From Gemmatales bacterium (GTDB lineage: Bacteria > Planctomycetota > Planctomycetia > Gemmatales > HRBIN36), in NCBI GenBank assembly GCA_035430005.1, contig DAOMFV010000005.1:15196-79195 (forward strand): a stretch of 64,000 nucleotides of DNA, read 5' to 3'. The notes beneath the pieces are model-generated. The model saw only the letters and a list, made by a program, of their open reading frames with translations, made no database searches and was not told the origin of the DNA. Positions 44,188 to 59,222 of this stretch are shown in pieces. The first letter of the stretch is position 1; every line of letters begins with the position of its first letter. A program made the translations under genes and the position numbers.

Positions 44188-44204
44188 CGAACCAGGCAAA
44201 AACC

Positions 44205-44232
44205 AAAAGGGGCAGACAATGTCTGCCCCTTC
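44205..44232. terminator. bidirectional stem-loop between convergent nrfA and the outer-membrane protein gene
   Basis: AAAA-GGGGCAGACA-A-TGTCTGCCCC-TT. 10-nt complementary arms, an A-run on one side and TT on the other. Confidence 0.6.
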
Positions 44233-44254
44233 TGCAGGTGTGATCAATAGATCA

Positions 44255-45898
44255 TTACCAGCGATAGCCATAAATGATGTAAAGCAAGTCTGAGTCAACC
44301 GCTTTGTTTGGCCCAGCGGTGTTCTCCAGGAAGCTGCCGCCGAAAAGTTTGCTGTAGCCCACCATCAAGTCCGAATGCTTGGTCAGATGGAAGTTGGCGG
44401 TGAAATCAAGTTCGGTACCCACATCACGCCCGGCTGATCCATTGGGAGAACGGCGATAGGCGCTGCCTGCTGCGTTGTAAAGGGCGTCCTCACTCTCAGC
44501 CAGCCAGAAATGATGGGCCTGGAACCAGAGTGTCATCCAGTTGACGGGGTACAGGAATAAGTGAGCATTTAGATCCTGGATATTCTGCCTGCCTACCAGG
44601 TCAGCCCAACCCAGGTAGTAGTGGCCAAAAGGAAAGAGCTGATTGAAAGTGTTGTAGTTACCAGAGTTGGGATTCGAATCACCACTGGCATAGTCGTAGT
44701 AGAGCCAGAAGGTCGGATTCATAGGCAACTGATCAAAGTGATAGCCAGCACCTGCGGTAGCCATGCCGGCAACGATGCTTTCTTTGCCTCGTTCACCGAG
44801 TTGCAGTGCGACTTCGCCATCCCATAAGAAGTTGTACTTATCGCCAGAGTAACGAGTGCCCAGGGTATGAGCCTGGAAGGGGGCACGAGCAATACCTTGT
44901 TGGACAACGGTGTTCTCGTTATCGAGATAGAGATAATAGAAATCGACAGACTGCCCTTTTTCTGGTCGATACGTTGTCCAGAGACCGGCAAAGTTCTGCT
45001 TCTCATCCCATGAATCGAGCTTGTTGGCATCGGGAATGACAGGCCTGACCCAGAACGCGGTGACATCCCAATCCTCACCCTGCCTGAAAGCTGACACACC
45101 CTGGAACGTACGGCGAGTATTAGCCCAATCCAGCGATGAGATCAGTCGCTGGGAGCCAAGGAGCATTTCCTGACGACCGACTCGCACATAGACGGGTTTA
45201 CCATCGACTTCGCCCAGTTTCATGTCCATGAACAAGTTGAGGAAGTCAGCCCGGTTAACATCATTAGGCAGGGGAGGTAGATCATATCCTGTGATATCGG
45301 CTGAGATAAACTCGGTGTAGATTCGGAACTTGTCTTGGTACCAGAGGTCGCCATAAGCACGAACTCGTTCAACGGTGTATGTATTATTCACCTCGGTCAG
45401 TCGGCTGTTGCCTTCGTTCATATTGCGAATCCAGGCTTGGCCACCTGTAGAAAAGAGCCAATTGTCGCCAATACGAATTCGCTTGAGGGGATCAAAGAAA
45501 TCGTGACTGGTGTTATTTGGATCATCCAAATATCGGAAATCAGCGTTGAAGAGGCCGGGCTGCATCAAAGCAAAGGGCGGGTAACCATACTTGGGCGGAC
45601 TCTCTCTCCATTCGCCACGAAGTTCATCCAGCACCGAATAGTAGCCAGGTCCCTTGGGAGGGTTAGGAAAATTGCCGGTCCGTGGCGTGGGCCAGATGGG
45701 TGGCACGTTTTTGAAGTCAAATGCTCCATTCCCTGAGCATGTGTCACAGGGTGCAACGACAACTACAGGAGCTGCGATTTCCTTAACTGGTGCTTCTTGA
45801 GCACATATAGTAGGTGATTCTGCCAAAAAAGCGCTGATACACCCCACCATCAGAACGTGGCACCAGGGCCAATGGTTTCGGACCATGACACCCTCCAT
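44255..45898 (-). CDS. putative outer-membrane beta-barrel protein (alginate-export/porin-like, tentative)
   Basis: Signal-like N-terminus, alternating beta-strand pattern with aromatic girdles, and a C-terminal ...LLYIIYGYRW ending in an aromatic residue, as in OMP beta-signals. Confidence 0.45.
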   Translation of the reverse strand: MEGVMVRNHWPWCHVLMVGCISAFLAESPTICAQEAPVKEIAAPVVVVAPCDTCSGNGAFDFKNVPPIWPTPRTGNFPNPPKGPGYYSVLDELRGEWRESPPKYGYPPFALMQPGLFNADFRYLDDPNNTSHDFFDPLKRIRIGDNWLFSTGGQAWIRNMNEGNSRLTEVNNTYTVERVRAYGDLWYQDKFRIYTEFISADITGYDLPPLPNDVNRADFLNLFMDMKLGEVDGKPVYVRVGRQEMLLGSQRLISSLDWANTRRTFQGVSAFRQGEDWDVTAFWVRPVIPDANKLDSWDEKQNFAGLWTTYRPEKGQSVDFYYLYLDNENTVVQQGIARAPFQAHTLGTRYSGDKYNFLWDGEVALQLGERGKESIVAGMATAGAGYHFDQLPMNPTFWLYYDYASGDSNPNSGNYNTFNQLFPFGHYYLGWADLVGRQNIQDLNAHLFLYPVNWMTLWFQAHHFWLAESEDALYNAAGSAYRRSPNGSAGRDVGTELDFTANFHLTKHSDLMVGYSKLFGGSFLENTAGPNKAVDSDLLYIIYGYRW

Positions 45899-46200
45899 GA
45901 TAGTCTGTCGTGCTCAGCTTCCTGCTGAGATCTCAGGTTCAGCATCGACACTTTCAAAGTGGATAGTTGCATCTTATTAGACAGACTTCTGCCTTTTTTG
46001 GCAGGAGCCAACATAAGCACGCAGATTCGCTACAGATTAACAGGGTTTGTAATCTGAACATTGGTGACAATGCGAAGGACCAGAGAAAATGACCTTAATT
46101 AACGAAACAATGGTAGTTTATTCTCTATATTATCGATAACTGCCCTGTTCACCCTTATGATAGGCTATTCCGCCCATCAGATTGCACGAACCGGTGACTT

Positions 46201-47493
46201 ATGTTTGCCATTCGTTTCTACGCAGTCCTGCTGCTCTACATTCTCGGTCTACCATCACTCCGTGCCGATGATATCGAACACGATCCCATCAATTACTCCA
46301 AAGCAACACCGAACAACATCATCACTCAACTCCAGGAACGCCTGAATGGTGGAAAAACTTCAATTCATTATGACGATGACACCGGCTATTTGAAAGGTGT
46401 TCTCAAAGAACTGAAGATTCCCCTTTCTTCTCAGGTTCTGGTTTTCTCCAAGACCAGCATGCAACGACCACGCATCAATCCCAAGACTCCTCGAGCGCTC
46501 TACTTCAACGATGACACCTATATAGGGTTTTGCCTGCATGGTTCCGTGCTGGAAGTTTCTACTACGGACTCCACTTTAGGCACCGTGTTCTACACCGTCG
46601 ATCAGGAGCGTCACAACAAACCAGTCATCACAAGGCAGACCGATAGTTGTCTCATTTGTCATGCCTCATCGTACAATCACGGCCTACCAGGACACCTCGT
46701 CCGATCAGTTTATCCTGATCGGAACGGAGAGCCATTGCTCGCTTCTGGTTCCTATCGAACGGATCAGACCAGCCCCTTCTCCGAACGTTGGGGCGGCTGG
46801 TATGTCACTGGAACGCATGGCAAACAGGAACACCTCGGTAATCGCTTCTATCACAAACGAAATGAAGCGATCGATGATTCTCTTCGTACTCAGAACGTCA
46901 CTGATCTTTCACAACACTTTACCGTAGGCCTCTATCCTTCGCCTCACAGCGATCTCGTCGCTCTCATGGTGCTGGAACATCAAACAGCGATGCATAATCG
47001 AATCACCAGGGCAACGCTCGATACCCGATTGGCGCTCTACTACCAGGATGACATGAATAAATCGTTCAACGAAAAGCCTGGAACGGTCTTTGATTCGACT
47101 AAAAGACGTATCCAAAGTGTCAGCGATGAACTGGTTAGATATCTACTTTTTAGCGGCGAAGCCAGACTGACTGATCCCATTGCAGGCTCATCTACTTTTG
47201 CCCAGGAGTTCAGTCAGCGTGGGCCCTTAGACAAGCAAGGCCGATCGCTTCGACAGTTTGATCTGAAGACCAGGCTGTTTCGCTATCCATGCAGCTATCT
47301 TATCTATTCGGAATCCTTTGACGGCATGCCTGTCGCTGTTCGTGAAGTAGTTCTAAAACAACTGTTCGATACTTTGACCGGCAAAGATCAATCAGCTGCC
47401 TACGCCCATCTTAGCCCAGCCGACCGCAAGGCTATTCTGGAGATTTTGCGAGAGACCAAGCCAAATCTGCCTGATTACTGGAGAATGAAATAG
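46201..47493 (+). CDS. secreted mono-haem (single CxxCH) protein of unknown function
   Basis: Signal peptide MFAIRFYAVLLLYILGLPSLRA. A single CLICH. Conserved-looking blocks VLVFSKTSMQ, PRALYFNDD, RWGGWYVTGTHG, RYPCSYLIYS. Confidence 0.55.
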   Translation: MFAIRFYAVLLLYILGLPSLRADDIEHDPINYSKATPNNIITQLQERLNGGKTSIHYDDDTGYLKGVLKELKIPLSSQVLVFSKTSMQRPRINPKTPRALYFNDDTYIGFCLHGSVLEVSTTDSTLGTVFYTVDQERHNKPVITRQTDSCLICHASSYNHGLPGHLVRSVYPDRNGEPLLASGSYRTDQTSPFSERWGGWYVTGTHGKQEHLGNRFYHKRNEAIDDSLRTQNVTDLSQHFTVGLYPSPHSDLVALMVLEHQTAMHNRITRATLDTRLALYYQDDMNKSFNEKPGTVFDSTKRRIQSVSDELVRYLLFSGEARLTDPIAGSSTFAQEFSQRGPLDKQGRSLRQFDLKTRLFRYPCSYLIYSESFDGMPVAVREVVLKQLFDTLTGKDQSAAYAHLSPADRKAILEILRETKPNLPDYWRMK

Positions 47494-47522
47494 GAATTAC
47501 GATACTACCATTCTAAGTTCTC

Positions 47523-47608
47523 CTACATAGGTAGTTGTGCGGTGGGCCAGACATTCTTGTCTGGCCTGCACAGACAAGAATGTCTGTGCCACCTAATCTC
47601 ATATGTAG
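47523..47608. repeat. 86-nt imperfect palindrome with a 15-bp perfect central stem
   Basis: AGACATTCTTGTCTG (47549-47563), loop GCCTGCA, then CAGACAAGAATGTCT (47571-47585). Outer arms CTACATA (47523-29) and TATGTAG (47602-08). Confidence 0.6.
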
Positions 47609-47620
47609 AGGCGCTTAGGA

Positions 47621-47636
47621 TGGCGTTCTTGTTGCA
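47621..47636 (+). promoter_or_regulatory. sigma54 (-24/-12) type promoter upstream of the sensor-kinase operon
   Basis: TGGCGTTCTTGTTGCA against the consensus TGGCACG-N4-TTGCW. The GG and GC dinucleotides have the canonical spacing. It lies 26 nt upstream of the ATG at 47662. Confidence 0.5.
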
Positions 47637-47661
47637 GATCATGCCCTTCTTCATCCTGTGA

Positions 47662-48888
47662 ATGAGAATGCTGCAAACCATCAACGAGAAGTTTGGCCAT
47701 CTGCGCCAGTATTTGAATTGGTCTGTAGAAGATGACAGGCATATTACGCAAATTCGCTCACTCTTGCTTCCCTTTGCTCCAGTCTTCATTGAAGACTTTT
47801 ATGCAGAGATTGTGCGGCACCCGACGATTGCACGTGTCATCACCGGCGGTGATCAGCAGATCGCCCGGCTGCAACAGAGCCTGCTCCGCTGGATCGATGA
47901 GCTGCTCTCCGGTCGGTACGATGTGGAGTATGTGCAGCGGCGCTGGAAAGTCGGCTATCGGCACGTGGAAATCGGGCTGGATCAAACCTACGTCAACATC
48001 GCCCATGCCCGATTGCGGATGCAAATGCAGTGCATCCTGCTCGAAGAGCTGAAGAAGGCGCCGGATCAACTTCGTGACTGTGAGATTACTCTCCACAAAC
48101 TGCTTGATCTGGATCTGGCCCTGATCTCAGCGGCCTACGCCGCGGAATTGCAGGAACGACAACACAAGCAGGCCAAGCAGGATGAGCGCCTGGCAACGAT
48201 AGGGCAGATGATTACCGGGCTGGCCCATGAAGCCCGCAATGCACTGCAGCGGATGCGGGCTTCGACGGAGAGCCTGGAACTGGATCTGGAAGAACAACCC
48301 AATCTGCATCCCGATCTGCACAGGCTGGGTGTTGCCCAGGATGATCTCACCAGGCTCTTTACGGAGGTGCAGAACTATGCCGCCCCGCTTGCCCTGGAAC
48401 GGGAGTGGGTTGCTATCAGTCATATCGCCCAGCAGGCCTGGGAGAGCCTGACTCGGCAACGCCAGGGGCGAGACGCTCAACTGAAAATGATCATCCCAGC
48501 TGATCTCAATCATGGAAATCATGATGCCTTCCGGCTGCAACAGGTCTTCCGTAACTTCTTTGAAAACTCGCTAGCTGCCTGCAAAGATCCGGCCATCCTC
48601 GAAGTAACTGCCCAGCCACAAAGCATTGACGGACAAAGCTTCGCCGAGTTCCGTGTGCAGGATAACGGACCAGGACTGAGCGAATCCGCACGGTTGCATG
48701 TCTTCGACCCCTTTTTTACGACGAAAACCAAGGGAACTGGCTTAGGCATGGCAATTGCACTACGTATTGTCGATGCTCATGGTGGCCGCTTACAACTGGG
48801 CCCTGTTGGATCGACAGGAGCCGATTTCCGATTGCTTTTGCCTCGAGTGGAACATGTCCCCTCCGCTAAGGATCGCCATCGCGGATGA
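47662..48888 (+). CDS. globin-coupled (protoglobin-domain) sensor histidine kinase, cytoplasmic
   Basis: N-terminal ~150 aa are protoglobin/GCS-like (..DFYAEIVRHP...RWKVGYRHVEIGLDQTYV, with a candidate proximal His in the H-V-E-I-G block). H-box LAHEARNAL, N-box FRNFFENS, G1 QDNGPGL, G2 GTGLGMA. No TM segment. Confidence 0.85.
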   Translation: MRMLQTINEKFGHLRQYLNWSVEDDRHITQIRSLLLPFAPVFIEDFYAEIVRHPTIARVITGGDQQIARLQQSLLRWIDELLSGRYDVEYVQRRWKVGYRHVEIGLDQTYVNIAHARLRMQMQCILLEELKKAPDQLRDCEITLHKLLDLDLALISAAYAAELQERQHKQAKQDERLATIGQMITGLAHEARNALQRMRASTESLELDLEEQPNLHPDLHRLGVAQDDLTRLFTEVQNYAAPLALEREWVAISHIAQQAWESLTRQRQGRDAQLKMIIPADLNHGNHDAFRLQQVFRNFFENSLAACKDPAILEVTAQPQSIDGQSFAEFRVQDNGPGLSESARLHVFDPFFTTKTKGTGLGMAIALRIVDAHGGRLQLGPVGSTGADFRLLLPRVEHVPSAKDRHRG

Positions 48889-49234
48889 TGAATCCGAGAT
48901 TCGCGATCACTACAGCAAGATCATCAAACGGCTCGGTCATGAAGTAGTGGCTGCGGTCGATACGGGGAATGCGCTCATCGAAGTCTGCCAACGTCTGCAT
49001 CCTGATCTGATCATCACCGATGTCCACATGCCTGGACTCGATGGGGATCAAGCGGTACGGGAAGTGTGGAAGTGCGAGACCATCCCGACAATTCTGATCT
49101 CTGCCTATGATCAACCCAAGGACTTTCCGCCGGCTGGTATCAACGTAGCCTGGGCCTATCTGAGCAAGCCCGTCAAAAGGCTCGACTTTGAAGCAGCCAT
49201 TCGTGCTACAATGAATACAGCAACTTTCGAATGA
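48854..49234 (+). CDS. single-domain response regulator (REC only)
   Basis: RIAIADDE...DLIITDVHMPGLDG...LSKP. It overlaps the kinase 3' end by 35 nt. Confidence 0.8.
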   Translation: MSPPLRIAIADDESEIRDHYSKIIKRLGHEVVAAVDTGNALIEVCQRLHPDLIITDVHMPGLDGDQAVREVWKCETIPTILISAYDQPKDFPPAGINVAWAYLSKPVKRLDFEAAIRATMNTATFE

Positions 49235-49256
49235 GAAGCTCCCGCTCAGGGTAGAT

Positions 49257-50591
49257 ATGTCGTCTCACGAGATCCTTCTGGTTGATGATGAACAGGATTT
49301 GCGGGAACCAATGGCCCGCAACCTGGAGCGCTGCGGCTATCATGTCAAACAAGCGGCAAATGTCAAAACTGCCTTAGCTCTCCTGGAACAGCACGACATC
49401 GCCTGTGCGGTGGTAGATCACTTCATGCCCGAAGCAACGGGGATGGAGTTTCTCGAAAGTCTCCAAAAGCTGGGGCATGATTGTGGCGTGATCATGATGT
49501 CAGGCCAGGGGACGGTGCCTCTGGCTGTGGAAGCCATGAAGAAGGGGGCGGTGGACTTCCTGGTAAAGCCGGTGCGGTTACCTGAGTTGCAGGCTGCCAT
49601 CGAAAGGCAGATCAATCATCTCCGGCTGCAACGGGAAAATGCTCATCTGAAGGGACTCCTGCGTCAGCAACGGCAGTCAGTACAGCTCATTGGTGAGTCT
49701 TCGGTCATATTGGAAGTGGAGCGGCTGATCGCCCGTATGGGCCCGACGAAGATGCCGGTCTTGATTCAGGGCGAAAGCGGCACGGGAAAAGAACTGGTTG
49801 CACGAGCATTGGTAGAGCACAGCGAACTCATTGACCAGCCGATGGTTACGATCAACTGTGCAGCATTACCCGAACCGTTACTGGAGAGCGAGCTGTTTGG
49901 GCATGAAAAAGGGGCGTTTACCGGTGCTGCCTCCGCCAAGCCAGGGCTGTTTGAAGTGGCTGATGGGGGGACGCTGTTCATCGATGAAATCGGCGAACTG
50001 GCTCCATCTCTTCAACCCAAGTTGTTGCGTGTCCTGGAAGATGGAAGCCTGAGACGGGTCGGTTCCATCAAGGAACGTCGAGTGAAGGTACGGCTCATAG
50101 CAGCCACCAATCGTGACCTGGCTCTGGAAGTCAAACAGGGTCGGTTCCGTGAAGACTTGTTCTATCGCATCAACATGCTGACACTTGATCTGCCGCCGCT
50201 GCGTGAACGGGGCAACGATATCGTTCAACTGGTTCATCATTTTGTTGGCCCTGGCTGGCAGATCGCTGATGGCGTGCTGAAAGCACTGCAACAGTATGAT
50301 TGGCCGGGCAATGTTCGTCAGTTGCGCAATGCCATCGACCGATCCAAAGTCCTGGCTGATGAGAATGTGATCGAACTTCGCAACTTCCCCGCTGAGATTG
50401 TGGAGACAAATCAATCGGCTATCAGTGAATCGGCTCAAGAAACCCAGGCACTAAGTGTGGTGACCAGACAGCATCTGATGGAAGTAATGCAGCGGGCGGG
50501 CAACAATAAGTCTCATGCAGCCAAGCTGGTGGGCGTGACGAGGCGGTCGCTCTACCGGCTGCTGGAAAAGTACGGAATAGGGACGAATTAG
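49257..50591 (+). CDS. sigma54-dependent response regulator (NtrC-type: REC + AAA+ + Fis-HTH)
   Basis: REC domain (ILLVDDE...[11 protein letters not shown]). Walker [15 protein letters not shown] sigma54-contact motif (EKGAFTGAA). C-terminal [24 protein letters not shown]. Confidence 0.9.
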
Positions 50592-50613
50592 TTCCATACC
50601 CGCCTCTCACACC

Positions 50614-50629
50614 TGTGCGGCTCCGCACA
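50614..50629. promoter_or_regulatory. candidate enhancer (UAS) palindrome upstream of ccoNO
   Basis: TGTGCGG-CT-CCGCACA (7-bp perfect arms). An extra CCGCACA half-site sits at 50642-50648. The palindrome lies ~100 nt upstream of the -24 element. Confidence 0.45.
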
Positions 50630-50725
50630 CTTTGAGGTCGACCGCACACCAAAACCGAAACGCTAGTGTTGGTATTTCCTGCTTTTTTTGCAGACCATTC
50701 GTGAAACTGCTGTACCCGTTTCCTT

Positions 50726-50742
50726 CGGTACGGCACTTGCTT
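50726..50742 (+). promoter_or_regulatory. sigma54 (-24/-12) type promoter upstream of ccoNO
   Basis: CGGTACGGCACTTGCTT against TGGCACG-N4-TTGCW. GG at 50727-28 and GC at 50739-40 (canonical spacing). 10 of 12 consensus positions match. ~45 nt upstream of the ATG at 50785. Confidence 0.6.
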
Positions 50743-50784
50743 GACTCGATGTTGAACTGTCTCGACTTCGAGGAAGTGCCTTTC

Positions 50785-53079
50785 ATGAGTAATGCAGCGG
50801 GTCTAATGCCGGGCGTACAGCTCGAAGAATACAAATACGACGACAAGATTGTCCGGGCCTTCGCGCTGGTCACGGTCATCTGGGCTTTGGTTGCCATGCT
50901 GGCCGGTGTCCTTATCGCGCTGCAGATGGTGATCCCCGGATTGAACCTGGGACTGACTTATACCTCCTTTGGCAGATTGCGGCCACTGCATACCAATGCG
51001 GCCATCTTTGCTTTTGGTGGCAATGCCATCTTTGCGGCAGTCTATTACTCCACCCAGCGATTGTGCAAGGCTCGGATGTGGAGTGACCGGTTGAGCTGGC
51101 TGCACTTCTGGGGCTGGCAGGCGATCATCGTCTCAGCAGCCATCACCTTACCCCTGGGTTTCACACAGGGTAAGGAATACGCCGAGCTGGAATGGCCCAT
51201 TGATATTGCCATTGCCGTGGTCTGGGTGGCTTTCTTTGGCGTCAACTTCTTCATGACACTTGCTTGCCGCCGGGAACGCCACATGTATGTCGCTCTCTGG
51301 TTTTACATAGCCACCATTGTGACCGTGGCGGTGTTGCATGTGTTCAACAGCCTTGTCATTCCGGTCGGCTTGTTCAAAAGCTATTCGATTTATGCCGGGG
51401 TACAGGATGCCTTCATGCAGTGGTGGTATGGCCACAATGCGGTAGCATTCTTTCTGACGACACCGTTTCTGGGTCTGATGTACTACTTCCTGCCGAAGGC
51501 GGCGGAACGGCCCATCTTCTCGTATCGGTTGAGCATTATTCACTTCTGGTCGCTGGTCTTCATTTACATCTGGGCTGGTCCGCACCATCTGCACTACACC
51601 GCGATGCCGGAATGGTCGACAACGCTGGGCATGCTCTTTTCCCTGATGCTCTGGATGCCTTCGTGGGGCGGCATGATCAATGGACTGCTTACCCTGCGTG
51701 GAGCCTGGCGGAAAGTGACCGAAGACCCCGTGCTGAAGTTCTTTGTCGTCGGTATCACCTTTTATGGCATGGCGACGTTCGAAGGGCCGGTGCTTTCCAT
51801 CAAATCGGTCAATGCCCTGTCCCACTACACAGACTGGACGATTGCCCACGTGCATGGGGGAGCGCTTGGCTGGAACGGCATGATGACCTTCGGCATGATC
51901 TACTGGTTGCTGCCCCGACTCTTCCAGACCAAACTCTACAGCAAGAAGCTGGCCGAGTGGCACTTCTGGCTCGGCACGATTGGCATCCTGCTGTATATCG
52001 TCCCCATCTATGTCGCCGGGCTTACTCAAGGCCTGATGTGGCGAGCTATCGATAATCAGGGTAACCTGATGTATCCGAAGTTCATCGAAACCGTGATGGT
52101 ACTCGCCCCCATGTACTGGATTCGAGTCTTCGGAGGCTTGCTCTTCGTCAGCGGCGTGTTCCTCTTGCTCTATAATTTCATCCGCACCTGGATGACCCGA
52201 CCAGCTGTGTACGAAGAGCCTGTCTACACTGCACCGGCACTGTCGGCTGAGTATCAGGATGCCCCAGCACCTGTCTCGAAACTGGAAAACGTGACTGAAT
52301 TCGGGAAATCGGTCGATGTCTGGTCAACCTTCTGGTGGCACCGGGTGTGGGAACGGATGCCGCTCAAGTTCACCGTGTGGGTGATTATTGCTGTGGTTTC
52401 TGCGACGCTGTTTGAACTGATCCCGACGTTTCTGATTCGTTCCAACATCCCTGCGTTGCCGGGCGTGAAGCCTTACACTCCGCTGGAACTCGCCGGGCGT
52501 GATCTCTACATCGCCAACGGCTGTTACAACTGCCATTCGCAGATGATCCGCCCGATTCTGTCGGAAACGAAGAGGTATGGTCCCTATTCAAAGCCGGGCG
52601 AGTTTGTCTTCGACCACCCATTCCAATGGGGATCACGGCGCATCGGCCCTGACCTGGCACGTGAAGGCGGAGCTCAGAATGCCCTTTGGCACACGACTCA
52701 CTTCCGTGATCCGACCAATACCAGCCCAGGCTCCATCATGCCGGCTTACCCTTCATTCGAGCAGACGGAACTAAACTTCCGTACCATTCCGGAACGGGTG
52801 CAGGCCAACAACTTCCTTGCTGGTGGCCAGGCCTATTCACCTTCCGAACTCGAGAATGCCGAGAAACTGGCTCATGAGCAGGCCAGGAAGATCGCCACGG
52901 ATATCGTCCAGCAGAACGGCAGCCAGGGCAGCCTTCCTGCCAACCTGGATCAGACGCAACTGGTGGCGCTCATTGCCTACCTGCAACGGTTAGGCGTCGA
53001 ACAGGCCGATGCACCGCCAAGCAAGCCTGTCACTGCCCCTGTAGATGCAGGCAAGCCTGCAGCAACCCCGGTCAAATAA
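50785..53079 (+). CDS. ccoN: cbb3-type cytochrome c oxidase, fused subunits I and II (CcoN-CcoO)
   Basis: CcoN blocks [13 protein letters not shown] and GPHHLHYT. C-terminal CcoO block [16 protein letters not shown]. Start set at ATG 50785 (GAGGAAG upstream, downstream of the sigma54 promoter), not at ORF-track position 50632. Confidence 0.9.
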
Positions 53080-53091
53080 ACGGAGGCGCCT

Positions 53092-53268
53092 GTGATTCGC
53101 GAGTTGATGAAGTATCTGGATGCGTCATTCTGTGCGGAAGCGGCACTGGTGCTCTTCCTCGGGGCGTTCTTCGCCGTCACCCTGCGTGCCCTGCTGACAC
53201 AGGGATACCTCGCCAGGAAACAGGCAGCCATCCCACTTTCGGACGGTCAGGAGGTTACACGATCATGA
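53092..53268 (+). CDS. CcoQ/FixQ-like small membrane protein (58 aa, below the ORF-track size cut-off)
   Basis: GGAGG lies 5 nt upstream of GTG 53092. VIRELMKYLDASFCAEAALVLFLGAFFAVTLRALL... contains one TM helix. The stop overlaps the ccoP ATG (ATGA). Position between ccoO and ccoP is as in ccoNOQP operons. Confidence 0.5.
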   Translation: MIRELMKYLDASFCAEAALVLFLGAFFAVTLRALLTQGYLARKQAAIPLSDGQEVTRS

Positions 53269-53834
53269 GCGAGAAGAAGGCTGAACTTCTGGATCACATG
53301 TACGACGGCATCCAGGAGTATGACAATCCGCTGCCTGGCTGGTGGTCGTGGCTGTTTATCGGAAGCATCGTCTTCAGCATTGGCTATTGGCTCTACTACC
53401 AGACCAACGTCGAGGGGCGGTCCAGCATGGAAGAGTATACCCGAGACGTGGCAGACGATCTACGAATACGATTCTCAGAGATCGGTACCCTGTCTCCCGA
53501 CCGTGCCACCATGCTTAAGTATCTCGATGATCCCAAGTGGCGCGTCGTCGGCGAGATCGTCTTCAAAACCAATTGCGTCTCCTGCCATGGCGACAAGGCC
53601 GAAGGCAAAGTTGGCCCCAATCTGTGTGACGACAACTGGAAGAACGTCAAGAAGCTCGAAGACATCCCCACCGTGGTCGCCAACGGGGCTAATGGCCAGG
53701 CGATGCCGGCGTGGAAAAACCGTCTGCATCCTAACGAACTGGTTCTGGTAAGTTGTTATGTCGCCTCGCTAAGGGGTTCCAAGCCGGCTGGAGGCAAGGC
53801 TCCGGAAGGCGACATCATTCCGCCATGGAAGTAA
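53265..53834 (+). CDS. ccoP: cbb3 oxidase subunit III, mono-haem form
   Basis: FixP N-terminal motif DGIQEYDNPLPGWWSWLF + TM. A single CVSCH with a downstream GQAMPAW. 189 aa, whereas classical CcoP is dihaem and ~290 aa. Confidence 0.8.
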   Translation: MSEKKAELLDHMYDGIQEYDNPLPGWWSWLFIGSIVFSIGYWLYYQTNVEGRSSMEEYTRDVADDLRIRFSEIGTLSPDRATMLKYLDDPKWRVVGEIVFKTNCVSCHGDKAEGKVGPNLCDDNWKNVKKLEDIPTVVANGANGQAMPAWKNRLHPNELVLVSCYVASLRGSKPAGGKAPEGDIIPPWK

Positions 53835-53854: not shown

Positions 53855-55252
53855 ATGTCCTCGCTGCTGATGCCTGAAGAACATGTGCTCTCGACTCTGG
53901 AGAAAGACGGATCGCGGCGCTGGCTCTTTCCACGACTGTCGCCTGGAGTTTTCTGGAAAGTTCGATGGGTGGTGGCGTATGGCCTGATTCTGCTGTTCGT
54001 CCTGCTGCCTCATTGGCGAATTGGGGGCAAGCCGGCCATCCTGCTCGACCTCATCAACCGCCAGTTCTCCTTTTTCGGATTGACGCTGCTTCCGACCGAT
54101 ACCTTGTTGCTGGCCTTGTTCATGGTCTCGGTGTTTCTCACCATCTTTCTGCTAACAGCCCTCTTTGGCCGGGTCTGGTGTGGCTGGGCCTGTCCGCAGA
54201 CGGTGTACATGGAGTATGTTTTCCGGCCTATCGAACGACTCTTTGATGGGACCAGGGGCAAAGGCGGGCGTCCTTCTTCTCAGACGCCGTTCTGGCGGCG
54301 CAGCCTGAAGTATGTGGCTTATCTTCTGATAGCCATGCTCCTGGCTCATACGTTCCTGGCTTACTTCGTGGGTGTCGAACAACTGTCGCACTGGATCAGA
54401 CGATCTCCCGTCGAACATCCTGCGGCCTTCATTGTGATGGCTGTCGTAACAGGATTGATGCTCTTTGACTTCTGTTACTTTCGTGAACAATTGTGCCTGG
54501 TGGCCTGCCCCTACGGACGGCTCCAATCGGTGCTGCTCGATAAGCAGTCACTGATTGTCGCCTACGATGTCAAACGGGGCGAACCACGTGGCAAGTTCAC
54601 CAAAGAACTACCGATGGCGGAAAGTCATCAAGGTGATTGCATCGATTGCAAGCTGTGTGTCCGTACTTGCCCAACGGGAATCGACATTCGCAACGGCTTG
54701 CAGATGGAATGCATCCACTGCACCCAGTGCATCGATGCCTGCGATGAGATCATGGACAAGATCAGCAAGCCGCGCGGCCTCATCCGTTACTCGTGCCAGG
54801 AAGCTATTGAAGGTTTGCCCCATCAGGGGTTTCGGCCAAGGCTTGTTATCTATCCGCTTCTGCTCCTCGTGGCGATCTCCGCCTTCATCATCGTGCTGAT
54901 CAATCGTGCACCGGTAGATGTGACGGTGTTACGCAACATAGGCAGCCCCTTTAACCTGACTCCCGATGGCCAGGTGCAGAACACCATGCTCATCAAGCTG
55001 GTAAACAGGCAGACCGAGAGCAAAGACTACACCATTGAACTGCTGGACACCGGGGCCACTCCACGTGACCAGGTGAAACTGGTAGTGGAAGGGTTGCCCT
55101 GGCGGCTGGAGCCACTGCAACTGACGACCCATTCAATTCTGATTACCGTCCCTCCATCAGCCTTCACTTTTGGACACTATGACCTCAAGCTGGCAGTGAA
55201 AGAAGGCAACACTCTCAGGAAGGAAATTACATGTCGTCTCCTGGGACCTTAG
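53855..55252 (+). CDS. ccoG: cbb3 oxidase accessory protein CcoG/FixG (4Fe-4S)
   Basis: CGWACPQT, CPYGRLQS, CIDCKLCVRTCPTGIDIR, CIHCTQCIDAC. Confidence 0.9.
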   Translation: MSSLLMPEEHVLSTLEKDGSRRWLFPRLSPGVFWKVRWVVAYGLILLFVLLPHWRIGGKPAILLDLINRQFSFFGLTLLPTDTLLLALFMVSVFLTIFLLTALFGRVWCGWACPQTVYMEYVFRPIERLFDGTRGKGGRPSSQTPFWRRSLKYVAYLLIAMLLAHTFLAYFVGVEQLSHWIRRSPVEHPAAFIVMAVVTGLMLFDFCYFREQLCLVACPYGRLQSVLLDKQSLIVAYDVKRGEPRGKFTKELPMAESHQGDCIDCKLCVRTCPTGIDIRNGLQMECIHCTQCIDACDEIMDKISKPRGLIRYSCQEAIEGLPHQGFRPRLVIYPLLLLVAISAFIIVLINRAPVDVTVLRNIGSPFNLTPDGQVQNTMLIKLVNRQTESKDYTIELLDTGATPRDQVKLVVEGLPWRLEPLQLTTHSILITVPPSAFTFGHYDLKLAVKEGNTLRKEITCRLLGP

Positions 55253-55266
55253 AACCTGAAGCCAGC

Positions 55267-55776
55267 ATGGAGAATCGTGAACTCTTCGCCAAGTGGAAAT
55301 GGGTGGGCCTGATCGTAGGTCTCCTGGCTATCCAGGTGGTGGTGGGCGGCATGGCTATCTTCCTTGCCAACATCGATCCGGCCCATTCGGTTGTCCCAAA
55401 CTACCACCAGCAGGCGATGGAATATGACAAAGTGCTGGCAGCTCGGCAGGTCAGCCATCAGCTGGGCTGGACTTGGACGATTGTTCTCGGCCAGCAGATC
55501 GACAGTACTGGCAAACGGCAACTGATGATTCAGCTTCAGGATGGAAAGGTACAACCCATTTCTGAGGCCCATGTGGCTATCCAATTGTGGCATCATGCTC
55601 GGGGTAACTCTCGGCAGAACATCGCTCTCACACCCATACTACACAAGCCAGGTTGGTACCAGGGAGAAGCGGTCGTAGATCGTACGGGCCTCTGGCAAGT
55701 CGACCTGAGTGTTGATCGGCTGAAGGACCATTTCGTTGACCGCCGGGAGAACTACTGGAGCCTGACCAAGCCATGA
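55267..55776 (+). CDS. FixH-family protein
   Basis: N-terminal TM (WKWVGLIVGLLAIQVVVGGMAIF) plus a periplasmic Ig-like domain. Its position after ccoG fits a FixH/CcoH-type accessory protein. Confidence 0.65.
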   Translation: MENRELFAKWKWVGLIVGLLAIQVVVGGMAIFLANIDPAHSVVPNYHQQAMEYDKVLAARQVSHQLGWTWTIVLGQQIDSTGKRQLMIQLQDGKVQPISEAHVAIQLWHHARGNSRQNIALTPILHKPGWYQGEAVVDRTGLWQVDLSVDRLKDHFVDRRENYWSLTKP

Positions 55777-56558
55777 GCGCGGAGTTGGTGCTTACCATTG
55801 TGTCAGCCAGTCTGCTGGGCAGCACGCACTGTGCCGGGATGTGTGGGCCTATTGTCCTTTTGATGTTGGGCCGTGGCACAACAACGCAACCTGCTGCATC
55901 AACACAGAACGTGGCGGGACGCTTGCTCTTCTATCATCTCGGTCGATTAACCACATATGTCACTCTCGGCATGCTGGCCGGCACGCTGGGGATGACCCTC
56001 AACAAGACAGGTTCTTTGCTGGGCTGGCAACGACTGGCTGCTTACCTGGCTGGCATCACCATGCTGGTGAGCGCAGCAGTGTTGCTGTTGCGTCAACTGG
56101 GTGTCAGGCTACAACATCTGCCAGTGCCACAGCGCTGGGTGAAGGGCATCTATGCCGGCTTCCGATGGGCAAAGCAATGGCCGGTGCTGTTACGTTCCTG
56201 GTGGATCGGGCTGCTGACCACCTGGATTCCCTGTGGCTGGCTCTATGCTTTTGTCATTGTGGCGGCTGGTGCGAGCGATCCTCTTATCGGCGGTGTGGTC
56301 ATGCTGGCCTTCTGGCTGGGCACCGTCCCCATGCTGAGCTTGTTCGGACTGGGTGTCGTCCACCTGTCTCCTCTCTGGCGGCAGGCGACGCCGTGGATCG
56401 CCATCGCCGCATGTCTCCTTCTGGGTTGGAACATGCTCTTCCATCGTTCGGTGTTAAACCTCGAATCACTCCATCGACAACTCGATGGGGGCAAGCTAAC
56501 CACCAGCACAATACTACAACTCAACGAAACCAAACTACCTTGCTGCCATGACGACTAG
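55773..56558 (+). CDS. TauE/SafE- or DsbD_2-like membrane protein
   Basis: LLGSTHCAGMCGPIV motif, ~7 TM helices, ends in CCHDD. Start/stop overlaps with both neighbouring genes. Confidence 0.6.
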   Translation: MSAELVLTIVSASLLGSTHCAGMCGPIVLLMLGRGTTTQPAASTQNVAGRLLFYHLGRLTTYVTLGMLAGTLGMTLNKTGSLLGWQRLAAYLAGITMLVSAAVLLLRQLGVRLQHLPVPQRWVKGIYAGFRWAKQWPVLLRSWWIGLLTTWIPCGWLYAFVIVAAGASDPLIGGVVMLAFWLGTVPMLSLFGLGVVHLSPLWRQATPWIAIAACLLLGWNMLFHRSVLNLESLHRQLDGGKLTTSTILQLNETKLPCCHDD

Positions 56559-59046
56559 CCTGCTGTTACCTTCCCCTGTTTCTCGTCCAACTTCTCAGTC
56601 ACAGAAGAAGGTCGTGGTAGCCTGCACCCATTGCCAGTTGCCCGTTCCGAGCGGTCTGCTGGTGCAGGGCGTCTCTGAGCAGTTCTGCTGCACCGGTTGC
56701 CAAACCGTCTCGAGGTTGCTCCATGCTGAGGGGTTGGAGGCGTTCTATGCTATCTGTGATCAGGTTGCGTCAAAGCCACTCCAGGCCCGTTCTATCAACG
56801 ATGATTTCACCGAATTCGATGACGCAGGATTCCATGCCAGTTACGTCCGTGACCTTGGCCAGAATATCAAAGAAGTAAAGATCATCCTGGAAGGCATTCA
56901 CTGTGCTGCCTGTGTCTGGCTGATCGAAAAGCTGCCAGTCCTCTGTCACGGTGTGCTGGATGCTCGGGTGCAATTGATGGGGCAGCAGGCTACCATCCGC
57001 TGGAACCCTGAACAGACTCGGCTATCACTCGTCGCCAAGTCACTGGCTCAGCTTGGCTACTTGGCACATCCCGCAACGGATGAACGACGCGTGGCAGTAC
57101 AACAACGCGAGAATCATAGCCACCTGCTCAATCTCGGTATCGCCGGATTGTGCGCCGGCAACGCTATGCTCCTGGCGTTTGCGTTGTACGGTGGCCTGTT
57201 CGATGGCATTTCACCTGAGCATGCGACGTTGCTGCGCTGGGTCAGCGCCTTCCTGGGAATCATCGCACTCGTTTGGCCCGGCTCCACATTCTTCCGGGGG
57301 GCCTGGCAGGCGCTGCGCACCAGAACGCCCCACATGGATGTCTCGCTCTCCATCGGCCTGGCCGCTGGAGCCATCATGGGCGTAATCAACACGGTGCTGG
57401 GCACTGGTGAAATCTACTTCGATTCTTTATGTATGCTGATCTTTGTGCTGCTCATTGGTCGTTACCTGCAGTTTCGTCAACAGCGGCGAGCCGCGGAGAG
57501 TCTTTCACTTCTACGCAGTCTGACGCCAAGGATAGCCCAGAGAGTGCAGCCTGACGGTCAGATCGTTCGGGTTCCCACCAGTTCACTGCGACCGGGTGAT
57601 GAAGTCGAAGTACGTGTCGGCGACCTGGTGCCCGCTGATGGCATCATCCTTACCGGGCGTTCCACGCTGGATCAATCATTGCTTACTGGCGAATCAGTGG
57701 GCGTGGTGATTGAGCCCGGGCAGATCGTCACCGCAGGCGCAACTAATCTCTCGGCGGCGCTGCGCGTCCGGGTGGCGGCGATTGGCAAGTCGAGTCGCAT
57801 AGGTCGCTTGATGGATCTGGTAGAGTCGGTGTCGCTGGCTCGCGCGCCAATCATCGAACTGGCCAATCGCATTTCGGGAGTGTTCCTGTATGTGGTGCTC
57901 TTCCTGGCCTGTTGCACCCTGGCACTCTGGTGGAGCGCCGGCCCAGAAACAGCGTTGAACCACGTCATCGCTTTGCTCATCGTGGCTTGCCCTTGTGCCC
58001 TGGGGTTGGCCACGCCGATGACCATTGCTATCGCTCAGGGACGCGCTGCCCGGCAAAAGATCCTCATACGTCAGTCTGATGTCTTTGAACGACTGCAAGA
58101 CAAGGGCATGCTCTGGCTCGATAAAACCGGCACACTCACCGAAGGGAAAGTGAAGATGAAAGCCTGGCATGGCAACAAAGAGATCATGCCGCATGTTATC
58201 GCACTGGAAACAGGCATTGTTCATCCACTTGCTCAGGCTTTGTGTCAGTCACTTCGTGAACGTCTGGGTGAACAAGTTGCTGTTCCAACGGTGCAGGAGC
58301 AAACATACGAAGCCGGCATGGGGGTGCATGGGAAAATTAATCATCTTACTCTTCATGTGGGCACCCAAGCCTTCCTCATCAAACACGGCATCGAGATAGG
58401 TATGGAACATACCGGCCAAGTGGAAGAATACCTCGAACAAGGTTGGACACCTGTTTACCTGGCCTCACAGGGGAAGCTCCTTGCTGTCGCTGCTTTAGGT
58501 GATACCCTTCGACCTGAGGCATATAGCTCTCTCGAAACGCTTCGTAAACAAGGCTGGCAGATCGGCATCCTCTCCGGAGATCATCAAGCGGTGGTGTCAC
58601 ACATCGCCCGGCAATTAGACGTACCTGCTGAGTTAGCTCGTGGTGATGTCTTACCAGAAGAAAAAATGACTATCGTGAAGAACTTCCTGCCCCAGGGACA
58701 AAAGGTTGTCATGGTGGGTGATGGTGTCAACGATGCCGCTGCATTGGCTGCTGCTTCAGTGGGTATTGCAGTGCATGGTGGTGCCGAAGCAGCATTGCAG
58801 GCTGCACCTGTCTATCTGGGCCGACCCGGTCTCGAACCCCTCGTCGAACTATTCGATGGCAGCAAACGTACGCTGAACGCCATTCGTCGTGGCTTGATCG
58901 TCTCACTGGCATACAACCTCACCGCCATCGGCCTGGCGATCGCCGGTTGCATCACGCCTTTGGTGGCAGCTATCCTGATGCCGATCAGTTCACTGACAGT
59001 GACATTATTGGCCATCAGGCAGCACACTTTTACGAGGAAGCCATGA
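56548..59046 (+). CDS. ccoI: copper-translocating P1B-type ATPase (CcoI/FixI)
   Basis: N-terminal Cys pairs (CTHCQ, CCTGCQ), HMA-like [13 protein letters not shown] motif ([11 protein letters not shown]), [17 protein letters not shown]. Confidence 0.9.
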
Positions 59047-59222
59047 GCGTGATGTATCTCGCTTTGCCCATTGCTTTGTTACTGGTGGGAGCAGCATTCA
59101 TGGCGTTCCGCTGGACGGTTCGCAGCGGTCAACTCGATGACCTGGACACGCCTGCTTATCGTGCACTCTTTGATGACGAATCAGCTTCACCAAAACAGAA
59201 AGACTCTGGCGATCCATTTTGA
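59043..59222 (+). CDS. ccoS: CcoS/FixS cbb3 assembly protein
   Basis: [46 protein letters not shown] is typical CcoS. The ATG overlaps the ccoI stop. Confidence 0.75.

Follow-up and report, generated by a model that had tools for sequence, protein, structure and literature searches.

A putative oxygen-responsive globin kinase and sigma54 activator module serving the neighbouring cbb3 oxidase operon of a Gemmatales bacterium

The 64-kb window, that is, the whole stretch of 64,000 nucleotides that was analysed, carries on its plus strand (to which all coordinates below refer) three regulatory genes directly followed by a cbb3 oxidase operon, and this arrangement raises the question of whether the former control the latter, in response to which signal and from which promoters. 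The preferred reading, to which a probability of about 0.72 is given from the sequence comparisons described here, is that the three genes make up a two-component module which responds to oxygen, is dedicated to the neighbouring operon and acts through two sigma54 promoters. The operon begins with ccoNO (50785..53079), encoding fused cbb3 oxidase subunits I and II in 764 residues (PF00115, E 5e-125; PF02433, E 4e-80), which scores 1195 bits against the NCBIfam model of the bifunctional subunit I/II (NF011053; cut-off 1080). It continues with an ORF for a small membrane protein of 58 residues (53092..53268) that overlaps the start of ccoP by 4 nt and that, having no Pfam match, is labelled ccoQ by position only; genes of 58-59 aa are called at this position in L080, the closest relative, and in L081 and L083. 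There follow ccoP (53265..53834; subunit III, 189 aa, PF14715 FixP_N and PF13442), a ccoG/fixG-type ferredoxin gene (53855..55252; 465 aa, 93% identical in L003, with Fer4_5, Fer4_18 and FixG_C in the orthologues) and four maturation genes recognized by their Pfam domains (55231..59222), namely a fixH-like gene (55231-55776; PF05751 FixH), a gene for a DsbD_2-type membrane protein (55773-56558; PF13386), ccoI for a copper P-type ATPase (56548-59046; E1-E2_ATPase, HMA and ATPase-cat_bd) and ccoS (59043-59222; PF03597 FixS).

The first gene of the module (47662..48888) encodes a soluble, globin-coupled histidine kinase of 408 residues, or 406 from the second ATG (47668), at which its orthologues begin. 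Residues 9-164 are assigned to Protoglobin (PF11563, E 1.9e-29) and are matched by the globin structure of AfGcHK (PDB 5OHE; E 4.9e-22), with HATPase_c (PF02518) placed C-terminal to His189. His101, within RHVEIGL, aligns with the proximal His99 of AfGcHK and Tyr47 with its distal Tyr45, and these two residues together with the phospho-acceptor His189 are invariant in an alignment of 12 sequences. The two halves of the protein have different affinities. In the NmpRSTU system of M. xanthus, the protoglobin kinase NmpU, which needs haem, acts through NmpS on the NtrC-like regulator NmpR (PMC11841059), and homologues of nmpSTU have previously been noted in Planctomycetes (PMC6211767). The globin of the Gemmatales kinase is 45-52% identical to those of planctomycete NmpU-like kinases, whereas its kinase core shares 42-52% identity with NmpS-like REC-PAS kinases but only 27-30% with NmpU-like cores. 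By these comparisons the kinase is a mosaic protein, and it looks like an NmpU-type globin fused to an NmpS-type kinase core; if so, the two-kinase Nmp cascade would have been collapsed into a single protein.

The second gene (48854..49234) overlaps the kinase gene by 35 nt, an overlap that suggests translational coupling, and encodes a single-domain receiver (REC-only) protein of 126 residues (PF00072, E 1.8e-19) found in all orthologous loci. Its product is 41-49% identical to the protein encoded after the second, NmpS-like kinase of other Planctomycetota, which is a REC-ANTAR protein in both loci scanned (L036 and L029). The third gene (49257..50591) encodes an NtrC-class enhancer-binding protein of 444 residues bearing REC (PF00072), Sigma54_activat (PF00158, E 2e-66), AAA_lid (PF25601) and Fis-type HTH_8 (PF02954) domains, the AAA+ domain having both Walker A and the GAFTGA motif (at nt 49911). 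The order kinase, REC, activator, ccoNO is kept in nine loci, the upstream flank differing in each.

The spacer between the activator gene and ccoNO has diverged among the orthologous loci except for two conserved islands. The first, a predicted upstream activator sequence (50614..50649), is comprised of the perfect palindrome TGTGCGGCTCCGCACA (50614-50629) and an extra CGCACA half-site (about 50642-50648), and a palindrome of the form TG(T/A)GCG-N4-CGCAC(A/G) with an additional half-site is found in 9/9 orthologous spacers. The second, CGGTACGGCACTTGCT (50726..50741; GG at 50727-8, GC at 50739-40), is a predicted sigma54-type promoter whose -12 C lies 44 nt upstream of ccoNO and whose transcription start is predicted near 50752; the motif YGGTAY-N5-TTGCTT recurs in all nine spacers, 43-48 nt upstream of the ATG, within diverged flanking sequence. 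Taken singly, a -24/-12 match of this kind carries little weight, since in the 64-kb window such matches are about as common as chance predicts (62 with at most two mismatches, 44 +/- 6.5 expected), but the promoter motif and the palindrome recur together in every orthologous spacer. The expectation by chance is about 1-2e-3 per locus for the promoter motif and 2-7e-5 for the palindrome. Distances from palindrome to GG fall into three classes (68/69, 79/80 and 112/113 nt), and the differences between 68, 79 and 113 nt (11, 34 and 45 nt) would amount to whole helical turns only if a turn took about 11.2 bp, which leaves helical phasing of the two elements suggestive at best. The palindrome is the predicted binding site of the phosphorylated activator. 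Neither a terminator between the activator gene and ccoNO nor a conserved FNR/FixK box was found.

A second pair of such elements appears to lie inside the kinase gene. Among 11 kinase orthologues of 66-92% protein identity, two nucleotide blocks near the 3' end, TGAGCGAATCCGCACG and TTAGGCATGGCAATTGC, are identical in 11/11, at synonymous positions too. Their lengths are 16 and 17 nt, TGAGCGAATCCGCACG being the second-longest invariant run of the gene, where the next longest is 5 nt; the corresponding maximum is 6 nt for the REC gene and 8 nt for the activator gene. A degenerate amino acid is invariant in 192 codon columns; only 16 of these use one codon throughout, and eight of the 16 fall within the two blocks. 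The first block (48677..48692; codons L-S-E-S-A-R) is a predicted activator site, a single imperfect palindrome in which 4 of 6 positions pair, without a second site, and both of its half-site variants recur in sites upstream of cco (TGAGCG in L081, CGCACG in L090). The second block, the 17-nt run, contributes a predicted sigma54-type -24/-12 element, TTAGGCATGGCAATTGCA (48742..48759; GG at 48745-6, GC at 48757-8), set in the codons for L-G-M-A-I-A of the kinase G2 box, about 95 nt upstream of the REC gene ATG. It stands 68 nt from the palindrome, a spacing equal to that of the cco promoters in L083, L086 and L087. Codon choice in the G2 box is biased towards the sigma54 motif across the kinase family (full pattern in 27/41 against 3% expected, with control G2 boxes; ATT usage 83% against 26% gene-wide), and in Pirellulaceae a similar palindrome lies between the kinase and activator genes in 3/4 loci and a sigma54 motif in 4/4. 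The two blocks thus look like an activator site and a sigma54 promoter ahead of the REC and activator genes, although some other constraint on the codons of the G2 box is conceivable.

With these elements a circuit may be proposed. The kinase, by homology, would bind haem in its N-terminal sensor globin and autophosphorylate on His189, and would pass phosphate to both the activator and the REC-only protein, as their conserved linkage suggests. The phosphorylated activator, on the palindrome, would remodel sigma54-RNA polymerase at two promoters, of which the one before ccoNO would drive ccoNO-Q-P-G-H-x-I-S and the one in the G2-box codons would drive the REC-only and activator genes; because of the latter, activation would raise the level of the activator, a positive feedback. 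The co-induced REC-only protein would most likely compete for phosphate, and it is reasonable to regard it as a sink or brake exerting negative feedback. The kinase gene itself would be served by a separate, sigma54-independent promoter with read-through giving basal levels of the regulators, and since the second promoter that is conserved falls within the kinase coding sequence (48677-48758), any feedback would act on the two response regulators and not on the kinase. There is a slight lean, from the physiological logic of FixL and Nmp, towards a kinase that is on at low oxygen; the opposite sign, a kinase switched on with O2 bound as in AfGcHK, is almost as probable. No rpoN gene was found within the 64-kb window. 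Much of this was anticipated by the first-pass annotation of this DNA. Its globin-sensor kinase is confirmed by the domain, structure and ligand-residue matches, its overlapping REC-only gene and its NtrC-type activator with REC and GAFTGA are likewise as described, and its -24/-12 element, palindrome and third half-site before ccoNO recur in every orthologous spacer. The comparative survey that it called for, of globin-kinase/activator pairs beside cco genes, finds the linkage kept amid differing upstream flanks, and this linkage and the conserved spacer islands support its core idea, in which a globin kinase and a sigma54 activator work on a sigma54 promoter before ccoNO.

That annotation had also placed a sigma54 promoter at 47621-47636, from which the whole kinase-REC-activator operon would drive itself, bringing the kinase too into positive feedback. 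The element, TGGCGTTCTTGTTGCA, is indeed in the sequence, 25 nt upstream of the kinase ATG, with a single TGTGCG half-site 127 nt upstream of that ATG, and L086 has TGGAACGTGTATTGCA 29 nt upstream of its kinase start. Against this, matches of similar quality occur in the 64-kb window at a rate graded as chance (62 with at most two mismatches, 44 +/- 6.5 expected). The kinase-upstream regions of orthologous loci are not alignable, no GG-N10-GC occurs within the 350 nt scanned in L080, L081, L083, L087 and L090 (295 nt in L087, up to the contig end), no palindrome is seen there in any locus scanned, and the TGG of TGGCGTTCTTGTTGCA belongs to a 115-nt hairpin found only in the 64-kb window. A functional promoter at this position is not supported, and an operon driven from it as a whole is very improbable, the conserved second promoter lying inside the kinase gene and not in front of it. 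It is just as hard to credit that the palindrome serves a CRP/FNR-family or other regulator at a sigma70-type cco promoter, the -24/-12 element being incidental and the intragenic blocks serving some other end, for instance in RNA structure, in the control of translation or as a site of recombination. TGTGC-N6-GCACA is the outline of CRP-family sites, and as the palindrome fits the pattern TGTGN-N6-NCACA of CRP/FNR-family sites a second regulator may also act there; for the blocks, similarity between the window and L003 breaks at the kinase 3' end, near them, and a small hairpin could form in the first. Yet GG-N10-GC with TTGCTT keeps its distance from the ATG in 9/9 spacers, beside the gene for the enhancer-binding protein that such a promoter requires, and the promoter scan returned no sigma70-like promoter on the plus strand. 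The palindrome, moreover, accompanies the same activator subfamily in unrelated contexts: similar palindromes adjoin related activator genes in L005, L007, L009, L035, L061, L067 and L072, a 10-residue HTH motif of the activator is kept in relatives with the palindrome nearby, and the pairing with activators bearing this motif is found in seven further contexts. The two blocks reproduce both motif types and the 68-nt spacing exactly. A comparison with Rfam gave no match.

The remaining alternatives accept the promoters and differ on what reaches them. The kinase may signal mainly or only to the REC-only protein, which would be its ancestral partner and to which its gene overlap would tie it, another, unlinked kinase serving the activator, so that the globin would not be the input to cbb3 expression. 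Kinases of the same core type followed by a homologous REC gene are found in many Planctomycetota loci, with no activator gene in the available sequence; on this evidence the kinase/REC-only pairing is older and wider in evolution than the kinase/activator pairing, which is why the activator might have a different kinase. This is nevertheless rather improbable, as kinase and activator genes are adjacent in 11/11 orthologous loci and also in Pirellulaceae loci that have no REC-only gene (L005, L006, L007 and L009); no second kinase occurs within 4-10 kb in any orthologous locus. It is also unlikely, if somewhat less so, that the globin senses NO, CO or redox state instead of O2, the oxidase being tied to nitrite or NO metabolism. 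Sensor globins are established to bind O2, NO and CO, and nrfHA lies shortly upstream of the module (NrfA at 42742-44187), as NrfA, an Rrf2 regulator and an NrfH-type (Cytochrom_NNT) gene do in L080. The nrf linkage, however, is confined to the 64-kb window and L080, the upstream genes of the other loci being unrelated, while the linkage to cco is found in every locus; the distal Tyr and proximal His are those of the O2 sensor AfGcHK, and Nmp, a homologous system, is responsive to hypoxia (PMC11841059).

Among known systems, the FixLJ-FixK(-FixT) pathway of fixNOQP likewise places cbb3 oxidase expression under a haem-based kinase. FixT is a pathway-induced small inhibitor, receiver-like in Caulobacter, that provides negative feedback, as is proposed for the Gemmatales REC-only protein. 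In contrast, FixL senses through a haem-PAS domain in place of a globin, FixJ belongs to the LuxR type of regulators, and the sigma70 promoters at which FixK acts carry TTGAT-N4-ATCAA boxes, of which the Gemmatales locus has no conserved example. In NtrYX of Brucella and Neisseria, a haem-containing sensor kinase is partnered with an NtrC-family regulator and influences cbb3 and denitrification genes, but NtrY is a membrane PAS-haem kinase, the system has no globin, and NtrX, in which a functional GAFTGA is generally missing, does not work via sigma54. AfGcHK of Anaeromyxobacter sp. Fw109-5 (PDB 5OHE; PMC8697598) resembles the Gemmatales kinase in being soluble, about 400 residues long and bearing its sensor globin directly on the kinase, with the proximal His and distal Tyr in equivalent positions. 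The Gemmatales core is closest to another kinase subfamily, and AfGcHK is partnered by a two-receiver protein and not by a sigma54 activator; O2 binding turns AfGcHK on (PMC8697598), whereas the sign in Gemmatales is only a slight lean.

The closest parallel is NmpRSTU, which largely anticipates the wiring that the first-pass annotation put forward as new for a high-affinity oxidase (PMC11841059). Oxygen input is through a protoglobin histidine kinase homologous to AfGcHK (PMC11841059, PMC6211767), and output is through an NtrC-like sigma54 activator, a likeness at the level of class and not a claim of orthology to NmpR. A cbb3 operon, together with its copper P-type ATPase, belongs to the regulon; NmpR activates sigma54 promoters of this operon, of its own operon and upstream of nmpU (PMC11841059). 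One Nmp target promoter, pilR, also sits inside the preceding kinase gene, and a phosphate-sink role has been proposed for the receiver-only protein. Nmp differs in using two kinases where the Gemmatales locus has one, with no REC-kinase hybrid in the locus or the 64-kb window, in the two receiver domains of NmpT where the Gemmatales protein has only one, akin to the REC of REC-ANTAR proteins, and in the NmpR site, GCGCA-N5-TGCGC as against a predicted TGTGCG-N4-CGCACA; only the Gemmatales module is physically joined to the cco operon. On sequence comparison, the Gemmatales locus is a streamlined variant of this published circuit type, with a single mosaic kinase, no inverter kinase, one REC protein and a different predicted DNA site.

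The gene content proposed in the first-pass annotation, which was made from the sequence alone, is borne out by open reading frames and domain scans. A soluble globin kinase encoded on the forward strand of the window (47662-48888) carries an N-terminal Protoglobin domain (PF11563, residues 9-164, E 1.9e-29) and HATPase_c (PF02518, E 1.8e-18). Its gene overlaps by 35 nt that of a single-domain, 126-aa REC-only protein (48854-49234, forward strand), which is followed by an activator gene (49257-50591, forward strand) whose product is comprised of REC, sigma54-interaction AAA+ (PF00158) and Fis-type HTH (HTH_8) domains, with GAFTGA encoded at nt 49911. Directly downstream lies the fused cbb3 oxidase gene ccoNO (50785-53079, forward strand; 1195 bits to the NCBIfam bifunctional subunit I/II model) and then, in order, a 58-aa ORF in the ccoQ position, ccoP, ccoG, a fixH-like gene, a gene for a DsbD_2-type membrane protein, the copper ATPase gene ccoI and ccoS. 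Neither rpoN nor a second activator was found in the 64-kb window by motif search of the six-frame translation. Among solved structures, the kinase N-terminal domain finds a match in the AfGcHK globin (5OHE; E 4.9e-22), in an alignment that pairs H101 with the proximal His99 and Y47 with the distal Tyr45; together with the PF11563 match, this upholds the proposed protoglobin and its proximal His within RHVEIGL. H101, Y47 and the phospho-acceptor H189, located within the motif GLAHEARNAL, are all invariant in a 12-member family alignment, and the globin would be expected to bind haem. The DHp region appears atypical, as a Pfam scan returned no HisKA match. The nearest database relatives are annotated as Gemmatales/Planctomycetia MAGs.

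The comparative survey of globin-kinase/activator pairs beside cco operons, as the first-pass annotation had suggested, reveals a firm linkage. The order kinase, REC, activator, ccoNO, small ORF, ccoP and ccoG is complete in nine non-redundant loci (the window and the related database loci L003, L080, L081, L083, L086, L087, L088 and L090) and is consistent in two truncated ones (L001 and L084), with the orthologous kinases sharing 66-92% protein identity with that of the window. The upstream neighbours of the kinase vary in nearly every locus: the window and L080 have an nrf cluster there, L081 has gatC/ribosomal genes, L083 glycosidases, L086 a lipase and L088 a methyltransferase, and L084 and L090 have DUF1501 genes. 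Since these left flanks differ while cco is constant, the regulatory genes travel with the cco operon and not with their left-hand neighbours. The stretch before the module in the window (42742-47493) holds the gene for the cytochrome c552 nitrite reductase NrfA, a divergent one on the minus strand for an outer-membrane porin of the alginate-export type (44255-45898), and one for a 430-aa protein that has no Pfam match and bears a CxxCH haem-c motif (CLICH). The same trio occurs in L080, preceded there by NrfD, Rrf2 and NrfH-type genes.

A lone -24/-12 match with two mismatches carries no weight in this window, which contains 62 of them against 44 +/- 6.5 expected, and it is comparison across loci that decides. 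All nine spacers between the activator gene and ccoNO contain a 16-bp palindrome, TG(T/A)GCG-N4-CGCAC(A/G), which is perfect in the window (50614-50629) and is the predicted site of the activator. An extra CGCACA-type half-site lies about 20 nt past it in all nine (GTGCACA in L090). All nine also carry a sigma54 motif, YGGTAY-N5-TTGCTT, whose -12 C sits 43-48 nt ahead of the ATG; MAFFT misplaced this promoter in the two most distant loci, where the element is still present (TGGTATATGAATTGCT in L081 and TGGTACACAAGTTGCT in L083). The remaining spacer sequence is unconserved among distant loci. By mononucleotide shuffling, the promoter pattern would arise by chance with a per-locus probability of 1-2e-3, and the palindrome with one of 2-7e-5. 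The distance from palindrome to GG falls into three classes (68/69, 79/80 and 112/113 nt), so that the palindrome centre precedes the predicted start by about 85, 96 or 130 nt; sites of enhancer-binding proteins typically lie some 80-150 bp upstream. The classes differ by 11, 34 and 45 nt, and only a pitch of about 11.2 bp would bring these differences near whole turns of the helix, which makes phasing at most suggestive. Unlike operons under FixLJ-FixK or FNR control, cco has no conserved TTGAT-N4-ATCAA box upstream of ccoN, the best matches carrying 2-4 mismatches in 10 at non-homologous positions. A terminator scan found none between the activator gene and ccoNO, and no known RNA families occur in 46000-52000; two terminator-like matches inside the kinase gene are weak and were dismissed as chance-level. 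The motifs in 9/9 loci strongly support control of the cbb3 operon by a predicted sigma54 promoter of the activator, and the proposed promoter match, palindrome and third half-site before ccoNO all hold up as sequence elements.

Two further features of cco regions were observed. A short inverted repeat, CTGC-TTTTTTT-GCAG, lies between palindrome and promoter in the window (50682-50696) and is roughly kept in the long-spacer loci, clearly in L003 and L088 and weakly in L080; it might be a bend or IHF-type site, or reflect mere shared ancestry. A more distant planctomycete MAG (L008) encodes a globin kinase 6.5 kb from a divergent ccoNO, with TGGCATTGGTTTTGCC about 200 nt ahead of the cco ATG (3400-3900, minus strand) and TGTGCG and TGAGCG half-sites about 155-190 nt further upstream, which hints weakly that cbb3 may be under sigma54 control beyond the Gemmatales clade as well.

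The -24/-12 promoter that had been placed before the kinase (TGGCGTTCTTGTTGCA, 47621-47636) fared otherwise and is rejected as a chance-level, unconserved match. The kinase-upstream regions of orthologous loci are unalignable, GG-N10-GC is absent before the kinase in five orthologues, including the closest, L080 (350 nt scanned; 295 nt in L087), and no locus has the palindrome upstream of the kinase. The match owes its TGG to the 3' end of a 115-nt hairpin (47508-47623; -63 kcal/mol, z = -8; core arms 47541-47563 and 47571-47593) between the genes for the 430-aa protein and the kinase. This hairpin is unique to the window and missing from the closest orthologous locus; it may act as a terminator or be what is left of an inserted element.

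Searching the window with the palindrome and sigma54 motifs of the cco spacers revealed one extra co-occurrence, within the kinase gene itself and about 95 nt ahead of the REC gene ATG: a palindrome, TGAGCGAATCCGCACG (48677-48692), and a -24/-12 element, GGCATGGCAATTGCA (48745-48759), 68 nt apart, which is the shortest cco distance class. As these elements encode L-S-E-S-A-R and the G2-box L-G-M-A-I-A, respectively, protein conservation alone could mimic conservation of the DNA, and synonymous sites were therefore examined. When 11 orthologues were aligned by codon, precisely these blocks, of 17 nt (TTAGGCATGGCAATTGC) and 16 nt, emerged as the two longest runs of invariant nucleotides in the kinase gene; no other run there exceeds 5 nt, and those in the REC and activator genes reach at most 6 and 8 nt, respectively. 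Of the 192 alignment positions at which a degenerate amino acid is invariant, only 16 use an identical codon throughout, and half of those 16 lie inside the two blocks, the rare Leu codon TTA among them. Variation returns at the first base beyond each motif, as exemplified by the last Ala codon, where GCA/GCT corresponds to the W of TTGCW. The GG/GC pair is conserved at exact spacing in 11/11 loci at this site, as it is in 9/9 at cco, and each half of the intragenic palindrome is found at a cco site (TGAGCG in L081, CGCACG in L090). We conclude that the block pair, although part of coding sequence, is a predicted sigma54 promoter that depends on the activator and serves the REC and activator genes. 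The feedback loop proposed earlier thus retains a conserved second promoter, but one inside the kinase gene and not before it. Other matches in the window were set aside: a third exact GGYAY-N5-TTGCW match at 61873 is antisense in a 755-aa gene, has no palindrome and is attributed to chance, and a palindrome-like match at 17878 (two mismatches) has no sigma54 motif near it.

Nucleotide identity between the window and L003 (10000-11250) is 57-71% over the kinase gene (window 47700-48900) and 85-91% from about 48900 onward, across REC, activator and cco; the corresponding protein identities are 68% for the kinase, 89% for REC, 92% for the activator and 95% for CcoNO. This jump indicates a putative recombination breakpoint at the kinase 3' end, beside the intragenic promoter. 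No such step occurs in L080 or L088.

Wider comparisons extend this picture to other planctomycetes. Four Pirellulaceae loci (L005, L006, L007 and L009) encode the same kinase type and then an activator, with no REC-only gene between, and a sigma54 motif separates the two genes in 4/4 (e.g. CGGCATAGCGTTTGCT in L005 and TGGTACGGAAGTTGCA in L009). Three of these loci also have a similar palindrome beside the motif, namely L005 (TGTGCGTATTCGCTCG and CGTGCGTTAACGCACA), L007 (TGTGCGAAATCGCACG) and L009; L006 has no palindrome half-sites between these genes. A short ORF stands between sigma54 motif and activator gene in L006 (1716-2300), L007 (11190-11840) and L009 (11313-12020), and by eye its product looks like a universal stress protein (MSFQ.ILCPVDLS...). 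In seven further contexts, such palindromes lie within 4 kb of activators sharing one HTH motif; an estimate from base composition expects a chance palindrome in no more than a few per cent of stretches of that length (8 kb). The LGMAIA G2 box is written as GGYATGGCNATTGCW in 27 of 41 other planctomycete kinases (mean GC 62%), whose own codon usage predicts 3%; ATT makes up 83% versus 26% gene-wide, and GCW 78% versus 18%, although the 41 kinases come from related species and a p-value for this bias overstates their independence. Other G2 boxes of the same loci, serving as a control, use ATC in 48 of 60 cases, which argues for selection on the putative DNA motif itself. Its family-wide form, GGCATGGC[A/G]ATTGC[T/A], is found at 48742-48759 in the window and in the second kinase of L011, L012, L017, L018, L021, L024, L027, L028, L030 and others, and suggests that a possibly old promoter lies within a catalytic motif, ahead of a REC or REC-ANTAR gene. 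No motif resembling the upstream site was apparent by eye at the equivalent coding position in this wider kinase family.

The kinase itself is best understood against the Nmp pathway of Myxococcus xanthus, in which NmpU, a haem-requiring protoglobin kinase homologous to AfGcHK, phosphorylates the two-receiver NmpT, a presumed sink, and NmpS, a hybrid REC-kinase, phosphorylates the NtrC-like NmpR at low oxygen (PMC11841059; PMC6211767). A canonical Nmp-like layout is found in L029 (10001-13968), comprised of globin kinase, REC-REC (253 aa), REC-PAS-HisKA-HATPase and REC-ANTAR genes; L036 (3034-7819) and L061 (10001-17548) have the same layout plus an activator, and L061 a P-type ATPase as well. 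The ANTAR domain is an RNA-binding antiterminator output, and we know of no report of such an output for M. xanthus Nmp. In L036, a palindrome and sigma54 motif stand ahead of the entire Nmp-like operon. With these planctomycete proteins as the only proxies for the M. xanthus ones, the globin of the window kinase shares 45-52% identity with NmpU-like globins, whereas the kinase core shares only 27-30% with NmpU-like cores and 42-52% with the REC-PAS (NmpS-like) cores of the same loci; by this proxy comparison, the core is not akin to NmpU-type kinases. The REC-only protein shares 41-49% identity with the REC gene product that follows the NmpS-like kinase, REC-ANTAR in L036 and L029. Relative to canonical planctomycete Nmp-like clusters, the window kinase is a predicted mosaic, and the simplest reading of the identity levels is a fusion that would have placed the globin straight on the output kinase, with the inverter step lost.

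Domains, ligand residues, conserved linkage and two conserved palindrome-plus-promoter pairs are seen directly in the sequence, while haem binding, phosphate transfer from the kinase to each of the two receivers, recognition of the palindrome by the activator and dependence on sigma54 are predicted. Activation would raise both the activator, as a positive loop, and the REC-only competitor, as a negative loop, the latter most plausibly draining phosphate from the kinase once induced, by analogy with NmpT and FixT. The oxygen response could take either sign. AfGcHK is active with O2 bound (PMC8697598), and a kinase of that kind would therefore form an anoxia-to-microoxia ON switch; if the globin stands in functionally for the phospho-receiver that inhibits an NmpS-type kinase, the kinase would be turned off by O2, giving the usual hypoxia-ON logic. 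We lean slightly towards hypoxia-ON. The boldest combination would hold that G-M-A-I-A, encoded as GGCATGGCNATTGCW, is an old sequence of planctomycete kinases that doubles family-wide as catalytic motif and downstream response-regulator promoter, that the fusion removed the NmpS-type inverter, and that the O2-bound globin turns the oxidase on, so that induction would run from anoxia to microoxia, the reverse of the hypoxia-on Fix, FNR and Nmp systems; taken jointly, these are unlikely to be all correct, at roughly one chance in four.

The wiring was thought possibly new at first pass, but NmpRSTU provides a precedent for a globin kinase acting on a sigma54-driven cbb3 operon. The first-pass observation largely stands and gains from the comparative data; its interpretation was right in outline, with its feedback promoter misplaced and its novelty overstated. 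NmpR activates sigma54 promoters through the site GCGCA-N5-TGCGC, and among its targets are hemN/hemerythrin and a cbb3 operon together with the P-type ATPase of that operon; NmpR also binds promoters ahead of its own operon (mxan_4236) and of nmpU, and a pilR promoter located within pilS (PMC11841059). Homologues of nmpSTU with shared synteny were already recorded in Planctomycetes by Bretl et al. (PMC6211767). Sigma54 regulons are predicted for Planctomycetia in a paper that leaves oxidases unmentioned (PMC12316311), Francke et al. (2011; PMC3162934) mention neither Planctomycetes nor oxidases under sigma54, and a literature search found no study on oxygen regulation of a terminal oxidase in Planctomycetota, to which the present predictions would extend sigma54 control of such an enzyme. 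The predicted promoter in catalytic-motif codons offers a clear, testable overlap of protein-coding and regulatory constraint, to which both the synonymous sites frozen in 11/11 orthologues and the family-wide codon bias point, and promoter scans limited to intergenic DNA would miss such a feedback loop. The locus shares with Nmp an NtrC-like activator with GAFTGA as output, but lacks an NmpS-like inverter kinase, there being no second kinase within 4-10 kb of any orthologous locus; it also has a single-REC 126-aa protein in contrast to the two-receiver NmpT, and conserves TG(T/A)GCG-N4-CGCAC(A/G) in contrast to the NmpR site. The predicted minimal one-kinase circuit from globin to sigma54 to cbb3, joined to its target operon, would be cleaner than the four-protein Nmp for studying how oxidase induction gets its sign and threshold from a sensor globin. 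The locus is best filed as a probable streamlined variant of the Nmp-type oxygen circuit, with the predicted coding-embedded promoter as its most unusual feature.
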